Virus genome (UHGV): UHGV-0276404
DNA: 14,666 nucleotides
Reading direction: 5' to 3' (one strand)
Source of the DNA: a virus
This document shows, one piece after another, positions 3,328 to 14,020 of the stretch (position 1 is the first letter of the stretch; each line of letters opens with the position of its first letter). The position numbers and the translations under genes were made by a program. The notes under the pieces are model-generated. The model made no database searches. It had not been told where the DNA came from and saw nothing but the letters and a program-made list of their open reading frames with translations.

Positions 3328-3343
3328 ATTACCTTTCAGGTGA
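3328..3343. promoter_or_regulatory. Operator-like inverted repeat ATTACCTTTCAGGTGA (copy 1 of the ATTACC-N5-GGTRA family)
   Basis: Intergenic, upstream of the 3420 gene. An extra ATTACC half-site at 3288-3293 and the shared string AACCACATATG also occur upstream of the tRNA unit (10708-10730). Confidence 0.45.
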
Positions 3344-3419: not shown

Positions 3420-3677
3420 ATGCAGCAGTATCACTATCCACTGGAAGACGGATTTACCGAAAGGATTCACACGCCGGGAGGCGTCAGATCACTGGTGGAG
3501 GGATCGCACTTGATGAAATTACTCCGGGATCTCGATAAGGATGGATTTAATGTCGATGGCCCACTTGCCGAACTGACTGCACTGATTAACTACGTCACCA
3601 GGTCACAGATGTCTATGCGGGATCTGCAAACACATCTCGACTATTGTGCCGAACAATTACGAAAACAAACCCGGTAA
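3420..3677 (+). CDS. Small Tum-like antirepressor candidate (85 aa), homologous to the C-terminal domain of the Bro-N antirepressor at 4826-5536
   Basis: ATG at 3420 with GGAG 9 nt upstream. The longer ORF-track start (3297) would place the LexA box and operator inside the coding sequence, so the internal start is preferred. Shares Y..PL..G....IH.P ... G.V..L.E.S.LM.LL..L..DG..V.G..AELT ... LRD.QTH..Y with the Ant C-terminus. Confidence 0.6.
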   Translation: MQQYHYPLEDGFTERIHTPGGVRSLVEGSHLMKLLRDLDKDGFNVDGPLAELTALINYVTRSQMSMRDLQTHLDYCAEQLRKQTR

Positions 3678-4556: not shown

Positions 4557-4825
4557 ATTTACATCGCACTCCTCTTGTGCCATAGTAATCGGGTACTGGC
4601 AAAATCCAGTGCCGGGATTGGCGTCCCGAGTTACTAAGTGGCGCATACCACGCCAGACGTGGTTTTTTTATGCGTTAAGCACAGCTATATCCGAATTATG
4701 GTGGGCTGGGCAGGGGTCCGAAAGGACGCCGGTACCACTTAGGCCGGTACGCCAACCTTGTCCAGTTCACCACCAGTAATTGGCGTTGCGGTGGTGATTA
4801 AAATCACTAAGTGGAGATAACCACC

Positions 4826-5536
4826 ATGGCTAATGCTCAAACTGCCATCTTCAAATTTGAATCTGTTAACCCTATCCGTTCCATCATTATCGATGGCCAA
4901 CCATGGTTTGTAGCCCAAGACGTTTGTAGTGCGCTGCGTATCCAAAACGTCACCCAAGCACTTGAAAAACTGGATGATGATGAAAGGTCTATGTTCAACA
5001 TAGGGCATGAACATCGTGCAATTTTTGACAGCCGAGTAAAAGAGATCAACATCATCTCCGAGTCAGGCCTCTACACACTGATCCTCCGCTGCCGCGACGC
5101 AGTGACACCAGGCACTATCCCCTACCGCTTTCGTAAATGGGTTACAGGTGAGGTTCTTCCTCAGATCCGCCGCACCGGAAGTTACATTAAAAACTCGCTC
5201 CCGCAGGAAGAACGCATAAAGATGGTTGCCGACCAGGTTGCAAACGCCACAGCATCAGCAGTGATGCAGGCAATGAAGATAGAGAACAAAACCTACAGCG
5301 CCCCGCTGAAGCCCGGCTACCGCAGCCTGATTCACTCGCCGTCTGGTGTTCTCGGCCTGACGGAGAACTCACTGCTGATGAATCTGCTGAACCAGTTACA
5401 GGAAGACGGGCACGACGTATCGGGCGCGGCGGCGGAGCTGACCACCATGTTCTGCTACATCGTCGGTGTGAGCAAATGCCTGCGTGATATCCAGACGCAC
5501 GCGGAATACATCAACGACAAGGCAGGGTTCTTCTGA
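4826..5536 (+). CDS. ant: Phage antirepressor with N-terminal Bro-N domain
   Basis: ATG at 4826 with GGAG at 4813-4816 (the ORF-track GTG at 4811 overlaps the SD). N-terminus FKFESVNPIRSIIIDGQPWFVAQDVCSALRI...GLYTLILRCRDAVTPGTIPYRFRKWVTGEVLPQI fits the Bro-N/AntA fold. Confidence 0.85.
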   Translation: MANAQTAIFKFESVNPIRSIIIDGQPWFVAQDVCSALRIQNVTQALEKLDDDERSMFNIGHEHRAIFDSRVKEINIISESGLYTLILRCRDAVTPGTIPYRFRKWVTGEVLPQIRRTGSYIKNSLPQEERIKMVADQVANATASAVMQAMKIENKTYSAPLKPGYRSLIHSPSGVLGLTENSLLMNLLNQLQEDGHDVSGAAAELTTMFCYIVGVSKCLRDIQTHAEYINDKAGFF

Positions 5537-5607
5537 CGGGCGGTGGCACATGGATGTGCTTTTAAATAATTCTGTACGATTGCAGACAGGGTGGTGAATA
5601 GAGTACT

Positions 5608-5623
5608 ATTACCTTACGGGTGA
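5608..5623. promoter_or_regulatory. Operator-like inverted repeat ATTACCTTACGGGTGA (copy 4)
   Basis: Intergenic, downstream of ant and upstream of the leader ORF and terminator that precede the 5753 gene. Confidence 0.4.
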
Positions 5624-5660
5624 TCCATAGCGATTAGGCACCGATACAGGAGGAGCCCAC

Positions 5661-5693
5661 ATGAGAAAATTTGACGAGTACGAAGGCGTTTAA
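5661..5693 (+). CDS. Possible 10-codon leader peptide (MRKFDEYEGV)
   Basis: Strong SD (CAGGAGGAG) 5 nt upstream of ATG 5661; stop at 5691-5693; followed 20 nt later by an intrinsic terminator. Too short to support by composition alone. Confidence 0.3.
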   Translation: MRKFDEYEGV

Positions 5694-5712
5694 CATTCGG
5701 ATAGTTTAATGA

Positions 5713-5737
5713 CGGGGCCATTAGGCCCCGTTTTCAT
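5713..5737 (+). terminator. Intrinsic terminator / attenuator CGGGGCC-ATTA-GGCCCCG + TTTTCAT
   Basis: 7-bp GC stem, 4-nt loop, U-run; ends 5 nt before the SD of the 5753 gene. Confidence 0.6.
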
Positions 5738-5752
5738 GTCTGGAGACAGTTT

Positions 5753-6292
5753 GTGTTAAGTGAAGAAATGCAATTTGCCATGGCTGTGGCTCAAATCGTA
5801 AGTGCAGTCGCGGTTTCGCTTGGCTTGTTCATAGCTATCGCTACTATTATTTATAATGTAAATACAGCGAGAAAAGTACACACTTCAGTATTCCTTGGTG
5901 AAAGCAGGTTTGATGTAGATTATAAGAAAGGCCTATCTACTATGCGCCGCATTCACGAGTCGAACAAATCATTCCGCTCTTATATGTATCCAAGCAATGG
6001 GCAGGCTGATCTTACGGATGAAGAAAAGATAGAGAAGAGAGAAATAATTTACTGTCTAGGTTTCTACGAACGCATGGCTGTGAGCGTGAAGCGGAAAACT
6101 TATGATGAGACCATGATTAAGGAAGTATTTTACAGCTCCGTTGTAAATAACTATCAGATTGCGCTACCTCTTATACAAGCTATTAGAGAAAAAGAAAACA
6201 TAAACACATATTTTAAAGAATATGAATGGTTAGCCACACGATGGAAGGATTGTCCATTGAAGGATAAATCCCCGTGGTACAAGTTTTGGTAA
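5753..6292 (+). CDS. Membrane-anchored moron protein (179 aa), unknown function
   Basis: GTG at 5753 with GGAGA at 5742-5746 (alternative ATG at 5768). N-terminal hydrophobic helix (AMAVAQIVSAVAVSLGLFIAIATIIY) followed by a charged soluble domain; AT-rich by eye. Confidence 0.7.
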   Translation: MLSEEMQFAMAVAQIVSAVAVSLGLFIAIATIIYNVNTARKVHTSVFLGESRFDVDYKKGLSTMRRIHESNKSFRSYMYPSNGQADLTDEEKIEKREIIYCLGFYERMAVSVKRKTYDETMIKEVFYSSVVNNYQIALPLIQAIREKENINTYFKEYEWLATRWKDCPLKDKSPWYKFW

Positions 6293-6316
6293 GCCCGCGG
6301 CGAGGGCTTTTTTGTG
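6291..6316 (+). terminator. Intrinsic terminator AAGCCC-GCGGCGA-GGGCTT + TTTTTG
   Basis: Hairpin directly after the stop at 6290-6292, followed by a U-run. Confidence 0.5.
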
Positions 6317-6570: not shown

Positions 6571-6582
6571 GTGACATGTCAC
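6571..6582. repeat. Perfect 12-bp palindrome GTGACATGTCAC (copy 1 of 3)
   Basis: Read directly; immediately abuts the terminator hairpin and overlaps the stop codon of the 6579-6875 gene. Confidence 0.9.
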
Positions 6583-7256: not shown

Positions 7257-8366
7257 TTACTTCCCTAGCATGAACTGCGATGGTGGGATCAGAAAGTCGT
7301 TACCCTGTTCACGCTCAACACGGCGCTGATAACGCTCAAGAGAGCCTGGGTCGCCAATCTGTTTAATCCAGCCGTCAACCTTTCCTGGGCCAGCGTTATA
7401 GGCAGCTACTGCCAGAACCGGGTTATTGTCGTATTTCTTCATCTGCGCGCCGAAATAAGCTTGCCCCAAGCGGGCATTATAGCGCGGGTCATTCAACCAT
7501 TTATCTCGGTCCCACGGCACACCAGCAAGGCGGGCAGCTTCGGGGCCAGTATCTTCCGTCACCTGCGCTACGCCAACAGCGCCTTTTGGCGACACCAGAG
7601 GTGTTCCGTCCTTTCCGTACTGATTTCCGCCACTCTCCTGCCAGATTATTGCAGAGAATAACTGCGCCTCACTCGGTGTATCGGTTACCTCAATCTTGCC
7701 GTTCGGCCCCATCATCTGTTGATACATCGGCACATACCACGCCTCCGCCGCACCGTTCGCGGCATTCTCGCGCCACGAAACCCAGTTCTGTTCGATCTCT
7801 TCCTGACTCTGGCCGTGGGCTTCGCCGTAAGCGATGATGCTATGATATGCCTTCAATCCTGCCTGGTTTGCCATTGTCGGGTTACGGAACTGCATCGATA
7901 GGTTTTTTAGTGTCGCATCCTGCATATCCGCCTCATACTGGCGAACCTGTCCTATTTCGTACCTCCCGGCCTGCGTAGTGAACTGAATACGCTGTTGCTG
8001 CGCCTGCTGCATGAAAGCATTACGAGCCTGTTCATCTGGCAGCGACATAGCCAGTTGTTCAACCTGAGCATCAAACTGCTGCGTATACTCATGGCCTTTT
8101 CCAATAGCATTTTTCCCTTTCAGGTTAAGCAATCCTGTTTCAGGATTATTCAGCAGATCACTGCCTGTCTGACTGAGTTTAAGGGATGCCTCCTGAACAA
8201 AGGCAATATTGGCACGCTGTTTTGCCTGACCAAAAACATCAATTGCCTCTGTCCCTGCCCGAACAAAAGCATCACCAATACCTGGCTGAGAAAACGTCTG
8301 CAAGCCTGCTGACTGAACTCCACGACTCTCAACCTGACGTCCGGATACTGTTGGTACGACTGGCAT
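7257..8366 (-). CDS. Internal-virion-type protein with C-terminal lytic transglycosylase (SLT) domain
   Basis: Start ATG at 8366-8364 overlaps the upstream stop (TAATG) with GGAGGA 5 nt upstream; the ORF-track N-terminal extension to 8441 is rejected. SLT motifs IIWQESGGNQYG...GAVGVAQV...AYNAGPGKV; Gln-rich N-terminal region. Confidence 0.85.
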   Translation of the reverse strand: MPVVPTVSGRQVESRGVQSAGLQTFSQPGIGDAFVRAGTEAIDVFGQAKQRANIAFVQEASLKLSQTGSDLLNNPETGLLNLKGKNAIGKGHEYTQQFDAQVEQLAMSLPDEQARNAFMQQAQQQRIQFTTQAGRYEIGQVRQYEADMQDATLKNLSMQFRNPTMANQAGLKAYHSIIAYGEAHGQSQEEIEQNWVSWRENAANGAAEAWYVPMYQQMMGPNGKIEVTDTPSEAQLFSAIIWQESGGNQYGKDGTPLVSPKGAVGVAQVTEDTGPEAARLAGVPWDRDKWLNDPRYNARLGQAYFGAQMKKYDNNPVLAVAAYNAGPGKVDGWIKQIGDPGSLERYQRRVEREQGNDFLIPPSQFMLGK

Positions 8367-8911
8367 TATAATCCTCCGGGTAATCTGGTTCCTGCTGCTG
8401 CCCCGATTGGCGCAGGAGTGCTTTGAGTAAACGGACTCCACGTCCCACCAAACATCTGGTACGCACCGTATGCCTTCAGAGGCGCAGTGAGCAATGTTGT
8501 TGCTGCTCCTACATTCCCCTGTTTACGGGCTGAACTGGCTTCTGCTTTATAGTTGGCAGCCTGCACCTGATAACCGTAAGCCTCGCGTTGCGCGTTATTC
8601 ACCGTCGTTAGCGAATCAAGAGCACCAAACTGAGCAGTGTCACCAAATATATCCAGCGCGTTACCTGTAGATAAATCAGCGCCGGTAGCCCCCATTGTCG
8701 CCGCCTGTGTACCAAGCCGCTGTCGGGTCTCTCTGCGCCGTTGCTCAGCTTCAGCGTTACCTCTGTTTATTGCATCATTTGCCTGAGCTGTGGCTATATC
8801 TGCGTTCGCTTCTGCAACCTTCGAGGCATACTTTCCCTGTTGGTACTGGGTGTATGCCTGAATGCCACTCATGGCGAGCATTGCGCCACCAGCAATAACC
8901 GGATCGCACAT
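8366..8911 (-). CDS. Putative internal virion / ejection protein (181 aa, Ala/Gln/Gly-rich)
   Basis: ATG at 8911 overlaps the upstream stop (TAATG); operon context between a virion-type protein and the SLT protein. No recognisable catalytic motif. Confidence 0.55.
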   Translation of the reverse strand: MCDPVIAGGAMLAMSGIQAYTQYQQGKYASKVAEANADIATAQANDAINRGNAEAEQRRRETRQRLGTQAATMGATGADLSTGNALDIFGDTAQFGALDSLTTVNNAQREAYGYQVQAANYKAEASSARKQGNVGAATTLLTAPLKAYGAYQMFGGTWSPFTQSTPAPIGAAAGTRLPGGL

Positions 8912-9375
8912 TATTTTCTCTCCATGTGAAATCTGTGGAAATTAAGACCAAGAGCACCATAAGGCGCGGCTTCTTCAAGCCTGAATCCAAGCCAGTGCAG
9001 CCATGCTTTGGCAACATGGTTTCGCTCATCGACGTAGTTTTCCAGGCGCGGATAAACTGCCAGCATCTGCTGCAATACAGGGCGGCAGTGGCGAAGAAAT
9101 GTCTTCTGATATTTTTCAATACGGCTGGTTCCTACCAGCCAGGGCGTACCATTGCCACCGATCATTGACGCCGGAGATACGCCAAACATGGTTACCAGTT
9201 CTCCGTTCGCAAATCCTGACCAGGCCATAGTCGCAGTGCGAAGACCAACACGCAGCGCATCTTCGGTAGTCATCAGCGATACCGCATACAGTTCGTCAAT
9301 ATCAGCCTGACGAACATCCGGCAAAATCATCTGAAGATGCTCTTCGGTAGCGGGAACAATTCGAACATCGATCAT
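8911..9375 (-). CDS. Hypothetical virion-operon protein (154 aa); weak GNAT-like C-terminal motif
   Basis: ATG at 9375 overlaps the upstream stop (TGATG). C-terminal NHVAKAWLHWLGFRLEE loosely resembles the acetyl-CoA-binding region of GNAT acetyltransferases; recalled from memory, unverified. Confidence 0.5.
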   Translation of the reverse strand: MIDVRIVPATEEHLQMILPDVRQADIDELYAVSLMTTEDALRVGLRTATMAWSGFANGELVTMFGVSPASMIGGNGTPWLVGTSRIEKYQKTFLRHCRPVLQQMLAVYPRLENYVDERNHVAKAWLHWLGFRLEEAAPYGALGLNFHRFHMERK

Positions 9376-9965
9376 CAGAATCCCCCAACAGTAAGGCGAG
9401 GAATAACGGCAAGAACAGACAGCGGCAACGGATCAAGCTGACGGATTTTTACACGTCCGTTTTTGCCCCAGTTACTGTCCAGTTTCACTTCTACTTTTCC
9501 GGTAGCATCATCAACAGGATCATCGTAGAACTCGAATTCACGCTGTGGATATTCGTACCATTTACCGCCGGGCGTAGTCGCCCAGATGCCGCGACTGGCA
9601 TTCACAACCAGAGTAACGGAGGGGATCACCTGTTTTTTGTCCAGCAGCGTTTCCTGTCCGTTAATGTTGATATCCAGTGTTTCGAATTCAGCAGTTATTG
9701 GCAGGCCGATGTGCACTACAGCCCCCGGAGATTCCAGCGTGACGGCACCTCCGGAAACCACTTTCTGTGGTTCCACGTTCGCATCAGAGAGAATGTTTAC
9801 GGTCTGGCCTTCAAGATGAGACAGGCCTCCAAATGTCCGGCGCGCCATCTGCCAGTTCGTGGTGGCCACATTCCTGAGGGATGGCGGGACGTTCCTGTTA
9901 GCACGAACCACTACAGCGGTATTGCTGGTTACAGAAATAATGTCGCAACGTAATTCTTTTGACAC
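9375..9965 (-). CDS. Hypothetical structural-operon protein; 5' end and true start uncertain (possible fusion remnant)
   Basis: The frame is open from 9965, but the first in-frame start is GTG with no SD and it overlaps the portal-like ORF by 37 nt in another frame. The internal ATG at 9848 also lacks a good SD. Confidence 0.45.
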   Translation of the reverse strand: MSKELRCDIISVTSNTAVVVRANRNVPPSLRNVATTNWQMARRTFGGLSHLEGQTVNILSDANVEPQKVVSGGAVTLESPGAVVHIGLPITAEFETLDININGQETLLDKKQVIPSVTLVVNASRGIWATTPGGKWYEYPQREFEFYDDPVDDATGKVEVKLDSNWGKNGRVKIRQLDPLPLSVLAVIPRLTVGGF

Positions 9966-10459
9966 CTCATCGCCAGTATCAGGATCAGTTCCGGTATCGG
10001 GAATGGCATTGTGCGAATGATGTCCTCGTCATCCTCCAGCACTGCCATTGCACCAGTGCTGTATGTGCCGAGGCTTCCGTATAACTGCGGCAGCGACTGA
10101 TAGAGATTCGACTTATTGAACATATCGTTCATGCGGTTCTGCACCGCCTCAAGCCACAACTTAACAGGGCCATAATCCATCATTTCAGGATCTGGCGTAG
10201 CCAGGCGAAACCACGGACGCGCGGGGCTTGTGATGCCTGACATCATGCCGCTGGCGAGAGTGCGCGCCGCCATAGTCCCGGTCGAATCAATAATGCGTGT
10301 ATTGCGTCGATCGTTACGGTTGACCTCAGAAGTCAGAAAGCGGGAACCACGCGGGTTGATGTAATCACTCAACTCGCGCCAGTGCGGCTCGAACGACTGA
10401 CGCTCGCTTTCAAGTTGTGCGAACTGTTTGTTCAATCGCTCTTTAGTTGTTTCCGCCAT
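9929..10459 (-). pseudogene. Portal (head-tail connector) N-terminal fragment, T7 gp8-like, only ~176 aa
   Basis: ATG at 10459 with GGAG 8 nt upstream. ERQSFEPHWRELSDYINP...TLASGMMSGITSPARPWFRLA matches the N-terminal pattern of podovirus portals as I recall T7 gp8 (DRAPYETRAQNCAQYTIP...LASKLMLALFPMQTWMRLT). The ORF ends after 176 aa, whereas full portals are 500+ aa. Confidence 0.5.
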
Positions 10460-10680: not shown

Positions 10681-10769
10681 ATCAATGACTCCGTACGCAA
10701 TTAAATTATTACCAATTTAACCACATATGATTTATTTATCGTAGACAGTTGACATTTAACGCACGAATT

Positions 10770-10785
10770 ATTACCTTTCAGGTAA
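10770..10785. promoter_or_regulatory. Operator-like inverted repeat ATTACCTTTCAGGTAA (copy 5), overlapping a candidate promoter (TTGACA at 10750-10755)
   Basis: TTGACA, a 15-nt spacer, then the motif; heads the plus-strand tRNA unit. An upstream half-site at 10708-10713 and AACCACATATG at 10719-10729 mirror the arrangement at 3288-3343. Confidence 0.45.
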
Positions 10786-11107
10786 GCAAATGGTTCATTC
10801 CGGTTATTAACCTGACTGGCTTGTCGTTAAATTGAACAGGTGGAGTGAGCTTTTATTTTGAGCAGTACGGCGTATGGCACATGCGCCGATAGCGGTCTGG
10901 ATACGTTTAAGGGGCACCCTCCCTTGCTCGGGCAAACGAACCAGGTAGCCGGAATGTGCAAGTCGAGCGGTTTTATTCCGCGCACGGGGATTCACCATCC
11001 CGGCGATTCGGTGTGACGCCTCGGAAGAGACGAGGGTACAACGATGAGAGCATTTATGGAGCCGCGACAAAGTGTGGCGCCTTAACAGGCTAAGTGCTCT
11101 CAGCGTT

Positions 11108-11184
11108 GTGGCATTAGCTCAGTTGGACAGAGCAACCGCCTTCTAAGCGGTTGGTCGCAGGTTCGAATCCTGCATGCCACGCCA
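11108..11184 (+). tRNA. tRNA-Arg (anticodon UCU, reads AGA)
   Basis: Hand-folded cloverleaf: acceptor GTGGCAT/ATGCCAC, D-arm GCTC-AGTTGGACA-GAGC, anticodon arm ACCGC-CTTCTAA-GCGGT, variable TGGTC, T-arm GCAGG-TTCGAAT-CCTGC, discriminator G and encoded CCA. 77 nt. Confidence 0.9.
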
Positions 11185-11227
11185 GAATCACGCCTAAGGA
11201 CCGTGATGCCAGAAGTTCCAGGGGCTT

Positions 11228-11270
11228 GGCGGTGATGGTTTCCCTTGAAGGACTATCACCGCCCTTTTTA
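11228..11270 (+). terminator. Hairpin (GGCGGTGAT ... ATCACCGCC, 18-nt loop) followed by CTTTTTA, 3' of the tRNA
   Basis: 9-bp perfect inverted repeat plus a short U-run; may be a tRNA 3'-processing structure or terminator. Confidence 0.4.
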
Positions 11271-11347
11271 CAGCAGGACGCCATTGCGATGACTTCATGC
11301 TGTAAACCAGTACAGCCACGGAAGGCATAACTCATTGCTTCCAGTTC

Positions 11348-11371
11348 GCCCGGTTCGCCGGGCATTTTTTT
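11348..11371 (+). terminator. Intrinsic terminator GCCCGG-TTCG-CCGGGC + ATTTTTTT, abutting the SD of the 11383 gene
   Basis: Canonical GC stem, 4-nt loop and 7-U run; the SD AAGGTGAG begins 1 nt after the run. Confidence 0.7.
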
Positions 11372-11382
11372 AAGGTGAGATT

Positions 11383-11739
11383 ATGAACGACCAGCAAATC
11401 GAAAAAGAAATCGTTGAGAAAGGCAAAACCGCTCCGCGAGTTACGCCTCAATATATCGAAAGCATCATTCTTGAAGAGCATTTCTTTACTGCTTATGACG
11501 GCATTCGTGCTGCCAATATGGGCGTTGGCGATTCATGGACAGCGCATAAATCTACAGACCTCCTGACTTTCTGCGTATTGGTACTGAAGAATGGCTTCAC
11601 CGTCACCGGAGAGAGTGCCTGTGCAAGTCCGGAAAATTTTGATGCAGAAATTGGTCGGAAGATTGCCCGGCAGAATGCTGTAAACAAAATCTGGATGCTC
11701 GAAGGTTACTTGCTGAAGCAGAAGTTAAGCGAGCAATAA
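11383..11739 (+). CDS. Hypothetical phage protein (118 aa)
   Basis: ATG at 11383 with AAGGTGAG upstream; good coding look. Family not confidently recognised; a resemblance to the Gp49/Sf6 gp66-type small phage proteins is only a guess. Confidence 0.75.
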   Translation: MNDQQIEKEIVEKGKTAPRVTPQYIESIILEEHFFTAYDGIRAANMGVGDSWTAHKSTDLLTFCVLVLKNGFTVTGESACASPENFDAEIGRKIARQNAVNKIWMLEGYLLKQKLSEQ

Positions 11740-11743
11740 CACC

Positions 11744-11755
11744 GTGACATGTCAC
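11744..11755. repeat. Perfect 12-bp palindrome GTGACATGTCAC (copy 2 of 3)
   Basis: Read directly; 5 nt after the stop of the 11383-11739 gene and directly before a hairpin terminator. Confidence 0.9.
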
Positions 11756-11756
11756 A

Positions 11757-11788
11757 AACAGCCAGCCGATGAGCTGGCTTTGTTTTAT
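11757..11788 (+). terminator. Hairpin (AAACAGCCAGC / GCTGGCTTTGTTT, one bulge) with U-rich tail at the convergent junction with terL
   Basis: 7-bp perfect core AGCCAGC/GCTGGCT, 6-nt loop, then TTTGTTTTAT. Confidence 0.5.
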
Positions 11789-13305: not shown

Positions 13306-13898
13306 TGATTACCATCCTGACGTTCTTTGAGTCGCTTCCTGGCTGCTGCTATGCGATCAGCAATTGTCACATTCACATTAACATCCAGACGTTCTTTGAA
13401 CGCGTTGACATCAACATGCTTACCAATCAGCTCAAGGTTCTTCACCTTGTCAGGCCATTTAATTTTTTTGAGGATTGTCTCTATCGAATCCTCGTTCATG
13501 TTCATGATGGTCGATGACAGATCAAAGCCACTAAGCGTAGTGCGCCAGATTTTCGGCCACTCACGGATTGGTTTAAGGCTCCCATCGTCGTTGAGGATGT
13601 CGATCACATCCATCTGGTCGATCTCCACCAGGCGCATAAGAACGTAATCGGCACTGACGCGCATTCGTTTGTTGCGCTCCTCCATCAGCTCGGCAATCCG
13701 TTTTTGAATGCGTTCATCGCGCATCATGACACTGGCTTTAACTGCCGCTGTATTTGGGGAGAATCCTGCGTTAATCGCTGCCTGAGTCTGGTTTTCAGGC
13801 GTTTTGATGTATGACTGGCAATAAGCCTCCTGCATTGCTGTTAGTGGCTTAAATTGCGTTGATTTGCGTTTATAGGTTTTAGGTTCAGCAGGCATCAT
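13302..13898 (-). CDS. terS: Terminase small subunit
   Basis: KPLTAMQEAYCQSYIKTPENQTQAAINAGFSPNTAAVKASVMMRDERIQKRIAELM is a typical TerS DNA-binding N-terminus. Start placed at the ATG pair 13898/13895, because an intrinsic terminator (13941-13967) lies inside the ORF-track N-terminal extension from the TTG at 13976. Confidence 0.8.
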   Translation of the reverse strand: MMPAEPKTYKRKSTQFKPLTAMQEAYCQSYIKTPENQTQAAINAGFSPNTAAVKASVMMRDERIQKRIAELMEERNKRMRVSADYVLMRLVEIDQMDVIDILNDDGSLKPIREWPKIWRTTLSGFDLSSTIMNMNEDSIETILKKIKWPDKVKNLELIGKHVDVNAFKERLDVNVNVTIADRIAAARKRLKERQDGNQ

Positions 13899-13940
13899 AA
13901 CCACCGTGGTAATAGTTACCGTTGTGGTAATAGTACCATG

Positions 13941-13967
13941 CAAAATAAAGCCGCCATAGTTGGCGGC
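13941..13967 (-). terminator. Minus-strand intrinsic terminator GCCGCC-AACTAT-GGCGGC + TTTATTTTG upstream of terS
   Basis: 6-bp GC stem and 6-nt loop, followed on the minus strand by a U-rich run. Confidence 0.5.
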
Positions 13968-14008
13968 AGTATTCAAAACCCATCAAATTCATCATGCATA
14001 ATCTACTC

Positions 14009-14020
14009 GTGACATGTCAC
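14009..14020. repeat. Perfect 12-bp palindrome GTGACATGTCAC (copy 3 of 3)
   Basis: Read directly; overlaps the stop codon of the 14017-14355 gene, 41 nt from the terS-proximal terminator. Confidence 0.9.

Follow-up and report, generated by a model that had tools for sequence, protein, structure and literature searches.

How does transcription reach a phage gene that has an intrinsic terminator directly in front of it? The question is raised by the virus genome UHGV-0276404, the whole analyzed stretch of which (14,666 nucleotides [nt]) is called the window here. In it, a gene for a membrane protein of the DUF4760 family is preceded, in order, by a repressor operator, a strong Shine-Dalgarno (SD) sequence, a 10-codon open reading frame (ORF), and a terminator. 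A first-pass annotation had read this order as a leader-peptide attenuator, or a site of Q-like antitermination, in front of a moron, and had grouped it with terminators upstream of a Gp49-family gene and of terS. All of the elements, down to the SD sequence of the gene 5 nt beyond the terminator, lie where they were reported and are nonrandom; the observation is confirmed, and its interpretation is partly supported. The short ORF, mini-ORF 1, belongs to a family recognized by its C-terminal residues, a second member of which precedes terS, and the best reading of the pairing of mini-ORF and terminator, which we put forward tentatively, is ribosome-dependent control of the terminator. The features of the leader are as follows.

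5580 to 5585, then 5604 to 5609 or 5610 to 5615, plus strand: promoter-like elements, TTGCAG followed by TACTAT or TACCTT, predicted from the sequence only.
5608 to 5624, plus strand: repressor operator ATTACCTTACGGGTGAT, at the right-hand end of a conserved segment; the variable cargo starts directly after it.
5648 to 5655, plus strand: SD sequence of mini-ORF 1, AGGAGGAG, 5 nt before the ATG; a strong SD sequence is kept in homologous leaders.
5661 to 5693, plus strand: mini-ORF 1, MRKFDEYEGV-stop, with ATG at 5661 and TAA at 5691 to 5693; member of the D-E-(F/Y)-(D/E)-G-hydrophobic-stop family.
5711 to 5738, plus strand: intrinsic terminator, with a stem at 5711 to 5732 (9 bp), loop AUUA, and tail UUUUCAUGU; it starts 17 nt after the mini-ORF 1 stop.
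5742 to 5745, plus strand: GGAG, SD sequence of the DUF4760 gene, about 5 nt past the terminator tail; the gap from terminator to gene start is 15 nt.
5753 to 6292, plus strand: DUF4760 membrane protein gene; PGAP assigns the same GTG start, at 5753, in an identical Escherichia coli prophage.
6291 to 6316, plus strand: weak terminator after the DUF4760 gene (-9.3 kcal/mol).

The hairpin at 5711 to 5732 has a folding energy of -18.4 kcal/mol (z = -4.9), and none of 200 shuffled sequences was as stable; a simple terminator scan missed this terminator only because extension of the stem consumed the T-run. The SD sequence of the DUF4760 gene can pair with positions 5696 to 5703 around the terminator (UUCGGAUA with UGUCUGGA). 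A promoter concealed beside the hairpin (TTTAAT, 5705 to 5710) was considered and rejected; it has no usable -35 element, and nothing was found in its support. A search of Rfam 15 with the window leader (5608 to 5760) gave no match at an E value of 1 or below, and the same search with P2-type and Pseudomonas leaders gave only a noise match, on the terminator of one leader (L128).

The evidence that carries our interpretation is comparative. Homologues of the DUF4760 protein were collected by searching contigs with an alignment query, a single-protein query having returned nothing, and about 100 of them, from P2-like, Uetakevirus, Pseudomonas, and marine phages, have a mini-ORF upstream, with an intrinsic terminator of unrelated stem sequence behind it in nearly all cases. 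Among enterobacterial loci, a mini-ORF with the family ending precedes the DUF4760 gene in about 83 of 89, corresponding to 42 unique leaders and 25 distinct peptides of 9 to 11 residues. Counting back from the stop codon, D (-6), E (-5), and G (-2) are invariant in these peptides; position -4 is F or Y, position -3 is D or E, and position -1 is F, V, L, or C. At codon positions 1, 2, and 3, respectively, the last seven codons have entropies of 1.3, 2.0, and 7.2, and variation is almost confined to the third position (31 unique nucleotide versions). This pattern is a clear coding signature, and it points to mini-ORF 1 as a genuine, conserved, and translated unit, as the first-pass annotation had supposed.

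The terminator is conserved along with the mini-ORF. P2-like homologues, about 50% identical to the window protein, have a strong SD sequence, MKKVFDEFDGF-stop or MKKMYDEFDGF-stop, and, 16 to 18 nt further on, a strong terminator with a different stem, followed by the DUF4760 gene. The distance from stop codon to stem is 16 to 19 nt in 38 of the 42 unique enterobacterial leaders. Fifteen distinct stem versions keep the terminator, with cognate arms pairing at -15.5 kcal/mol versus -9.6 kcal/mol for noncognate arms; an A-U to G-C double change between Shae_phiSM and a P88-like phage is compensatory, and unrelated stems occupy the equivalent place elsewhere (for example, ACGGGGCC, GAGGCGGGG, GCGGAGC, GGTGAGTCT, and AGGAGGCC). 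At 30% protein identity, the leader ORFs of Pseudomonas phage zjk6 and its relatives are longer and end in REEYEGI-stop, NEEYEGF-stop, or KREEYEGL-stop, and marine homologues have leader ORFs ending in DENDGY-stop, in both cases followed by terminators; MNLRDGWDDI-stop is a further upstream mini-ORF among the Pseudomonas-phage and marine homologues of this identity. Because the order of short ORF, terminator, and gene is conserved in unrelated types of phage, expression of the DUF4760 gene must depend on passage through the terminator, and on this point the earlier proposal stands.

These comparisons bear on the possibility that the pairing is a coincidence, the hairpin serving only to end the antirepressor (ant) operon upstream or an IsrJ-like 3' small RNA, and the 10-codon ORF having arisen by chance or as the remnant of a gene. 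The region is mosaic, and 10 of 28 loci have the mini-ORF module in front of another gene, for a 211-aa protein, without the hairpin; that arrangement is best read as a recombinant. Against coincidence, the unit of ORF and terminator is kept with DUF4760 in other phage families, where the DNA has diverged, there is no IsrJ or other Rfam match, and the coding signature is clear. More specific versions fail in the same way. The hairpin travels with DUF4760 and not with the ant gene; the mini-ORF has 9 to 11 codons in all enterobacterial leaders, with a coding signature, and is not a remnant of something longer; and the suggestion that mini-ORF and terminator are unrelated modules brought together at mosaic junctions (5624/5625 and 5706/5707) was overturned by the P2-like, Pseudomonas, and other homologues that carry both. 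We regard coincidence as refuted by the comparative sequence data and scarcely credible.

If the pair is a unit, is it restricted to DUF4760? A second member of the family, missed in the first-pass annotation, lies on the minus strand in front of terS.

14009 to 14020, palindromic: perfect 12-bp palindrome GTGACATGTCAC, overlapping the stop codon of a gene for a 113-aa regulator; 9 nt before mini-ORF 2.
13999 to 13973, minus strand: mini-ORF 2, MHDEFDGF-stop, with ATG at 13999 to 13997 and TGA at 13975 to 13973.
13967 to 13940, minus strand: terS terminator, with a stem at 13967 to 13950 and tail UUUAUUUU; it starts 5 nt past the mini-ORF 2 stop and lies 42 nt before the ATG at 13898.
13935 to 13930, minus strand: TACTAT, followed by tandem operators at 13931 to 13915 and 13913 to 13897, between the terminator and the terS start.
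13898 to 13302, minus strand: terS, with ATG 13898 as its probable true start.

The terS terminator (-16.2 kcal/mol, z = -3.75) is at the distance from the gene that had been described. PGAP places the start of terS at a TTG (13976) that begins inside mini-ORF 2 and reads through the terminator and both operators; the resulting 26-residue N-terminal extension is probably an annotation artifact, since the curated epsilon15 start corresponds to ATG 13898. The order of palindrome, SD sequence, M(H/R/L)DEFDGF-stop, a 4- to 5-nt spacer, terminator, two operators, and terS is kept in at least 90 Uetakevirus loci, in the epsilon15-like lineage (MRDEFDGF-stop) as well as in a more divergent one (MLDEFDGF-stop), and all changes in mini-ORF 2 across these loci are synonymous or fall at residue 2.

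The third site named in the first-pass annotation, the Gp49-family gene behind a tRNA gene, also has its terminator as described.

10749 to 10754 and 10770 to 10786, plus strand: promoter TTGACA and operator of the tRNA-Arg/Gp49 unit.
11108 to 11184, plus strand: tRNA-Arg(TCT).
11228 to 11269, plus strand: first terminator after the tRNA, with a 14-bp stem.
11348 to 11371, plus strand: second terminator, a stem at 11348 to 11363 followed by seven T residues; 11 nt before the Gp49 ATG at 11383.
11383 to 11739, plus strand: Gp49/Sf6 gene 66 family gene (Pfam PF13876, E = 1.7e-34).
11733 to 11786, plus strand: Gp49 stop region, with a palindrome at 11744 to 11755 and a terminator at 11760 to 11786.
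6571 to 6582, minus strand: third copy of the palindrome, containing the stop codon of a gene for a 98-aa protein and abutting a minus-strand terminator (6570 to 6553).

In sister phages the Gp49 stop codon overlaps the ATG of MKDEFDGF-stop, which is translationally coupled to Gp49 and is followed by 4 nt, the same palindrome, another 4 nt, and the terminator; in some of them the terminator and SD sequence normally found before Gp49 lead straight into the mini-ORF, with no Gp49 gene. The window lacks this copy, with GAGCAATAACACC at 11733 to 11743 versus GAGCAATGAAAGACGAATTCGACGGCTTTTAACGCC in sister phages and a segment of about 25 nt missing. A mini-ORF of this family ends 5 nt short of the terS terminator, and another accompanies the Gp49 unit in sister phages; all three terminator sites are therefore tied to one family, and the idea that they share one logic holds. 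The accompanying claim that no promoter fits between terminator and gene holds for the 15-nt gap before DUF4760 and the 11-nt gap before Gp49, but not for terS, where the 42-nt gap contains TACTAT and two operators, a combination that recurs at four other unit starts in the window. The second terminator of the tRNA unit is kept in epsilon15 with two compensatory changes in its stem. The Gp49 leader itself is long (about 600 nt, 10787 to 11382), containing the tRNA and both terminators, and the epsilon15 record also marks an RNase III site there. As for the palindrome, exactly three perfect copies occur in the whole prophage (0.04 to 0.07 expected), each at the 3' end of a gene and adjoining an intrinsic terminator, and two of the three contain a stop codon; it may be bound by a protein or mark the boundary of a module.

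Beyond these loci, IMG/VR was scanned for the codons of DEFDGF plus a stop codon, in TAA and TGA versions, with at least 120 matches to each. Among the TAA matches listed, 36 of 120 precede a detectable DUF4760 homologue. Other contexts include the 8-codon ORFs MKDEFDGF-stop, MYDEFDGF-stop, MLDEFDGF-stop, and MNDEFDGF-stop, some followed by a terminator or another hairpin, and most of the recovered contexts have an intrinsic terminator behind the mini-ORF. Conservation covers the six residues that precede the stop codon, and the N terminus ranges in length from 2 to about 15 residues. Virulent CC31-like T4-type phages have a 21-codon ORF, MFSLRKFDAEDVDFFDEFDGF-stop, followed by a terminator, just upstream of gene 47 (10660 to 10800 of L249; 34103 to 34443 of Enterobacter phage CC31), where it is annotated only as a hypothetical protein; tblastn searches with the 21-aa peptide gave no matches. 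We found no description of the mini-ORF family in Rfam 15 or in the searchable literature, and literature searches on DUF4760 and the peptide motifs returned nothing relevant. The anatomy, conservation, coding signature, compensatory terminators, and spacings reported above are direct observations.

What, then, could carry RNA polymerase past these terminators? Ribosome-dependent terminator control is in our view the best reading of the pair of mini-ORF and terminator in these sequences, although we place it a little short of probable. The repressor-controlled promoter would produce a leader transcript of the DUF4760 gene from 5580 to 5752, carrying the strongly translated mini-ORF 1, the terminator, and then the DUF4760 start. 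Mini-ORF and terminator would together form a translation-sensing terminator, in which the ribosome finishing the mini-ORF decides whether the hairpin folds, and this ribosome probably lingers at the stop codon owing to the conserved C-terminal peptide; that dwell, the efficiencies of termination, and the signal that would be sensed are what we infer. A ribosome on a stop codon masks about 10 nt downstream. At terS, where the stop codon lies 4 to 5 nt from the stem, a terminating ribosome would by this estimate cover most of the 5' arm, and translated early transcripts would enter the late operon. At DUF4760, with the stop codon 17 nt away, the hairpin would form by default, most transcripts would end as a mini-mRNA of about 110 nt, and the protein would be made only by read-through, through leak or some modulation. 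Read-through in P2-type leaders could be tuned by an anti-SD element that pairs with the mini-ORF SD sequence or with the base of the terminator. Minimum free energy (MFE) folds of these leaders have the mini-ORF SD sequence and spacer paired with an invariant UUAACCUCU element 8 to 16 nt past the stop codon, enclosing the ORF and abutting the terminator, and this pairing is predicted to confine translation of the leader to a cotranscriptional window, as happens in regulatory leaders. A device acting in cis would be expected to have several copies per genome, each adjoining a terminator at an operon border; these copies and their attachment to terminators, together with the conservation of six residues next to the stop codon and the sequestration of the SD sequence, favor such a device.

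Several observations weigh against ribosome-dependent control. The geometry of a ribosome block fits terS (4 to 5 nt) but not DUF4760, where at 17 nt a ribosome on the mini-ORF 1 stop should not reach the hairpin. Without the 3' arm of the terminator, the window leader folds no better than shuffled sequences; folded whole, it retains the terminator, a 4-bp GCCC/GGGC pairing being the sole contact. In P2-type leaders the competitor at the base of the terminator, CCUC/GAGG, is likewise only 4 bp. Spacings from stop codon to terminator over all contexts are 2 to 5 or 16 to 24 nt, with none at 6 to 15 nt, where a rough background of ordinary ORFs has 21%; this bimodality is at most suggestive and not significant, because the contexts reduce to about nine independent families. 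Two loci, the enterobacterial L134 and Alteromonas phage P24, keep the mini-ORF without a terminator. The remaining 84 of the 120 TAA matches listed have no detectable DUF4760 homologue behind them, and some stand at operon ends with no downstream gene. The motif also occurs in tandem versions (for example, MKDEFEWCDEFDGF-stop and MLDEFEGFDEFDGF-stop) and at the ends of ORFs of 20 to 35 codons. Tandem copies, longer ORFs, and copies without a gene suit a binding peptide better than an arrest peptide.

Those last features lead to a different explanation, in which the mini-ORFs are genes for a trans-acting micropeptide with the free C terminus DEFDGF-COOH, binding a conserved host or phage protein or DUF4760 itself, and the terminator is the end of the mini-gene. 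At DUF4760, a constitutive leak would then set a high ratio of peptide to membrane protein, as in antitoxin/toxin-type pairs. The motif ends 8-aa ORFs in many unrelated contexts; it forms the last ORF of an operon in the copy that overlaps Gp49 (ATGA), with no gene following on that strand; and the ORFs of 20 to 35 aa that it ends include those upstream of gene 47 in the virulent CC31-like T4-type phages. Its persistence without a terminator in L134 and P24, its tandem repeats, and the confinement of conservation to the six C-terminal residues, behind an N terminus of variable length as in C-terminal tail motifs, speak for it too, and terminators from a few to about 20 nt past a stop codon are ordinary for the last gene of an operon. 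However, the conserved SD/anti-SD sequestration in P2-type leaders would limit output of the peptide, and a diffusible peptide has no need of two or three separate copies per genome, each at an operon-border terminator. A peptide of eight residues is expected to be short-lived, it has no known target, and searches of literature and databases found no entry describing one like it. Because the motif occurs without a following gene, as tandem repeats, and at the ends of longer ORFs, we consider a trans-acting function possible, if on the doubtful side.

Alternatively, a Q- or N-like processive antiterminator of the phage could modify RNA polymerase to pass all of the terminators, leaving the mini-ORFs irrelevant; this had been the other mechanism suggested by the first-pass annotation. 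Several terminators do stand between promoters and genes (4647 to 4669, 5711 to 5738, 11228 to 11269, 11348 to 11371, and 13967 to 13940), and transcription of the late operon has to traverse a convergent accessory unit as well. Just upstream of terS is a gene for a 113-aa protein assigned to PHROG family 536, "transcriptional regulator," and the 12-bp palindrome found beside three terminators could be where a factor binds. Yet the search for a Q/N-type gene found none, either in the PGAP annotation of the whole prophage or with Pfam and PHROGs on the window proteins, hypothetical early proteins outside the window not having been scanned individually, and the window has no put- or nut-type Rfam matches. 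Such a factor would also leave unexplained the conservation of the peptide across P2-like, Pseudomonas, and T4-type phages, which have different regulators. We think it unlikely.

The folding results bear on a classical amino acid-sensing attenuator of the trp, phe, or his type, in which a ribosome stalled in the leader by scarcity of a charged tRNA would allow an antiterminator to replace the terminator. The order of leader ORF, terminator, and gene is that of such attenuators, and P2-type peptides have three Phe residues in seven codons. But there is no run of identical codons, D, E, and G are invariant whereas other clades have Y, V, I, L, N, or W at the Phe positions, and what is regulated is a gene for a phage membrane protein and not a biosynthetic operon. 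The first-pass annotation had looked to alternative antiterminator structures over the leader ORF; RNA folding found none that is significant in the window. Of the leader-peptide attenuation proposed there, the translated leader ORF and the terminator stand, and the window has no significant antiterminator pairing and no regulatory codon run, so that a trp-type attenuator is not supported; we judge it very improbable. A mixed-clade MAFFT alignment had stems out of register, and RNAalifold therefore returned no structure from it; per-sequence folds and a one-clade alignment were used instead. For P2-type leaders, RNAalifold did propose a hairpin enclosing the stop codon, with three or four compensatory cases; it was rejected because only 7 of 40 unique leaders beat shuffled sequences and the window leader fails.

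The most far-reaching reading, which we consider possible but on balance doubtful, is a portable, peptide-specified module in several unrelated phage families. The mini-ORF ending in D-E-F/Y-D/E-G-hydrophobic-stop may hold a ribosome at a defined distance from a terminator and so gate read-through at operon borders, including the early-to-late junction at terS, or it may encode peptides of 8 to 20 residues whose free acidic-aromatic C terminus targets a conserved cellular or phage machine; DUF4760 would be its most faithful partner either way. If ribosomes gate these terminators, this would be a ribosome-based counterpart of N/Q antitermination, a simple translation-coupled gating shared by temperate and virulent phages without a dedicated antiterminator protein, and it would explain how Uetakevirus transcription moves from early to late genes. 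Should the peptide act in trans, the mini-ORFs would represent an unannotated and widespread family of phage micropeptides. In both cases annotation pipelines overlook these genes of 8 to 21 codons, and PGAP in addition extends terS through its terminator and operators. The uncharacterized DUF4760 family is now tied to a conserved regulatory partner. Its genes occupy slots for accessory genes, which in P2-like phages lie between the portal gene and the replication genes and in Uetakevirus are the cargo slot, and the family is therefore experimentally approachable.

Which promoter would drive the DUF4760 leader? Sites matching ATTACCN5GGTAAT with up to 2 mismatches number 9 in the window (0.5 expected; none of 200 shuffles reached 9), and 10 further copies lie in the early region (11302 to 23164 of L127; about 0.5 expected). 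A -10-like hexamer is paired with an operator at 3328, 4448, 4541, 5608, and 10770 and twice before terS (13897 and 13915), and the curated epsilon15 GenBank record marks equivalent sites as "protein_bind repressor," including one before terS. Operators dispersed in this way, at the start of every transcription unit, resemble a P1-like dispersed-operator immunity regulon. A common variant with a 7-nt deletion keeps the -35/-10 spacing of the promoter-like elements by use of the other -10 hexamer. About 330 complete E. coli genomes share the 85 nt after the Bro-N antirepressor stop codon (5537 to 5621), which end at the operator, as do about 100 IMG/VR contigs; the segment contains one further feature.

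5545 to 5572, plus strand: weak hairpin with a U/A-rich tail, directly 3' of the Bro-N stop codon (-8.3 kcal/mol, no better than shuffles).

Nine different downstream gene sets follow the operator among about 99 related prophages (loci L001 to L126). The slot that they occupy, from 5625 onward, holds among others a set with a YafO-family toxin, the 211-aa protein (PHROG 1349), and DUF4760, with recombination junctions at the operator. DUF4760 is one of at least nine alternative cargoes behind a shared, repressor-controlled promoter, which is itself predicted. The first-pass annotation had called the gene a moron; because this conserved promoter is common to many cargo sets, it is better described as cargo than as an autonomous moron, and its cassette, whose boundary falls directly after the shared operator and whose terminator precedes the gene, has no promoter of its own.

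The DUF4760 protein itself matches Pfam PF15956 over residues 19 to 164 (106.6 bits against a cut-off of 25, E = 1.6e-30) and has an N-terminal transmembrane helix and a helical domain. The fold predicted in its AlphaFold2 (AF2) model (pLDDT 86) comes closest to that of the EP domain in EDS1, PAD4, and SAG101, which are plant immune proteins; Foldseek of the model against the PDB gave no significant match. PADLOC found no defense-system match among the window proteins scanned, DUF4760 included, or for the alternative 211-aa cargo. Over its last 78 nt, together with the terminator behind it (6215 to 6313), the gene matches unannotated sites elsewhere in many E. coli chromosomes at 83 to 94% identity.

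The window as a whole is a phiV10/epsilon15-type (Uetakevirus) E. coli prophage, 99.7 to 99.9% identical to the prophage adjoining guaA in strain SW070919, three segments of which it lacks. Compared with a near-identical prophage in NZ_CM129861.1, it is without a 1.3-kb IS3 element and without two blocks, 5.75 kb and 6.5 kb long, of late structural genes, the junctions lying near 2631 to 2635, 7348 to 7352, and 9995 to 10003. Because these blocks are missing, the ORFs at 7257 to 8441 and 9375 to 10459 are fusion or truncation products; either the prophage is defective or the window is condensed. The minus strand carries the late genes, from terS (13898 to 13302) and terL on to the tailspike gene (3224 to 150), interrupted by four plus-strand units.

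3420 to 3677, plus strand: unit 1, a small gene.
4580 to 5536, plus strand: unit 2, a c4/IsrK-type leader and the Bro-N antirepressor gene (4826 to 5536).
5753 to 6292 and beyond, plus strand: unit 3, the DUF4760 gene followed by a gene for a 53-aa membrane protein.
11108 to 11739, plus strand: unit 4, tRNA-Arg and the Gp49-family gene.

The leader of unit 2 (4580 to 4777, plus strand) has Rfam matches above or near gathering scores to c4-a1b1 (43.4 bits), isrK (63.5 bits), and C4 antisense RNA (66 bits), and contains an internal terminator at 4647 to 4669. By sequence it is a putative antisense module of the P1 immI/Gifsy-1 IsrK type controlling the antirepressor.

How does the mini-ORF element compare with systems already known? 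TnaC is an example of ribosome-mediated attenuation by a short leader ORF. Others are the leaders of BmrB-bmrCD, MsrDL-msrD, and mef/mel (PMC4191407, PMC10314930, PMC4335068), and tightly coupled ribosomes suppress intrinsic terminators (PMC5021804). Together these form the closest class. The BmrB, MsrDL, and mef leaders likewise have a short, well-translated ORF, a terminator, and then a gene on a mobile element, with conserved C-terminal residues, and, as in arrest peptides, the conserved residues of the mini-ORF family lie next to the putative stall site. Unlike them, the mini-ORF system has no known inducer and no convincing antiterminator fold in the window; its motif recurs at several terminators per genome and where no gene follows; and it has two groups of stop-to-hairpin spacing (2 to 5 and 16 to 24 nt), with an ORF that does not overlap an anti-antiterminator. 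The trp, phe, and his attenuators share the order of leader peptide, terminator, and gene, and P2-type leaders have a comparable four-segment layout (SD sequence, anti-SD element, 5' arm, and 3' arm of the terminator), but the mini-ORF leaders have a conserved peptide motif in place of regulatory codon runs, their 2:3 pairing is only 4 bp, and the window's own leader has no anti-SD element.

Like the lambda pR'-qut-tR'/Q system, the terS junction has a terminator where the late operon is entered, and one would expect short transcripts that end there. It differs in that the search turned up no Q gene, a translated mini-ORF stops 5 nt short of the hairpin, and the promoter-like element and repressor operators lie after the terminator and not before it; the proposed agent would be the ribosome and not a modified polymerase. 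The IsrK/AnrP and P1 immI c4-ant modules (RF01394, RF01695, RF03163), a type present in the same window at 4580 to 4777, resemble the DUF4760 unit in having a promoter, an operator, a short leader RNA to a terminator, and read-through into the downstream gene, there the antirepressor. Read-through of the leader terminator is documented for IsrK/AnrP of Gifsy-1 (PMC4825925). In that module the terminated RNA is also functional, and the leader acts by antisense RNA pairing rather than through a peptide mini-ORF; it has no sequence similarity to 5608 to 5760. Among accessory genes, morons of lambdoid phages are autonomous promoter-gene-terminator cassettes. The DUF4760 cassette is like them in being present or absent among close relatives and in having a terminator downstream, and unlike them in using a promoter common to at least nine cargoes and in having a terminator upstream of the gene. 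The mini-ORF element is distinct from all of these: it is a specific peptide motif, portable between terminators and between phage families, with no evident antiterminator fold.

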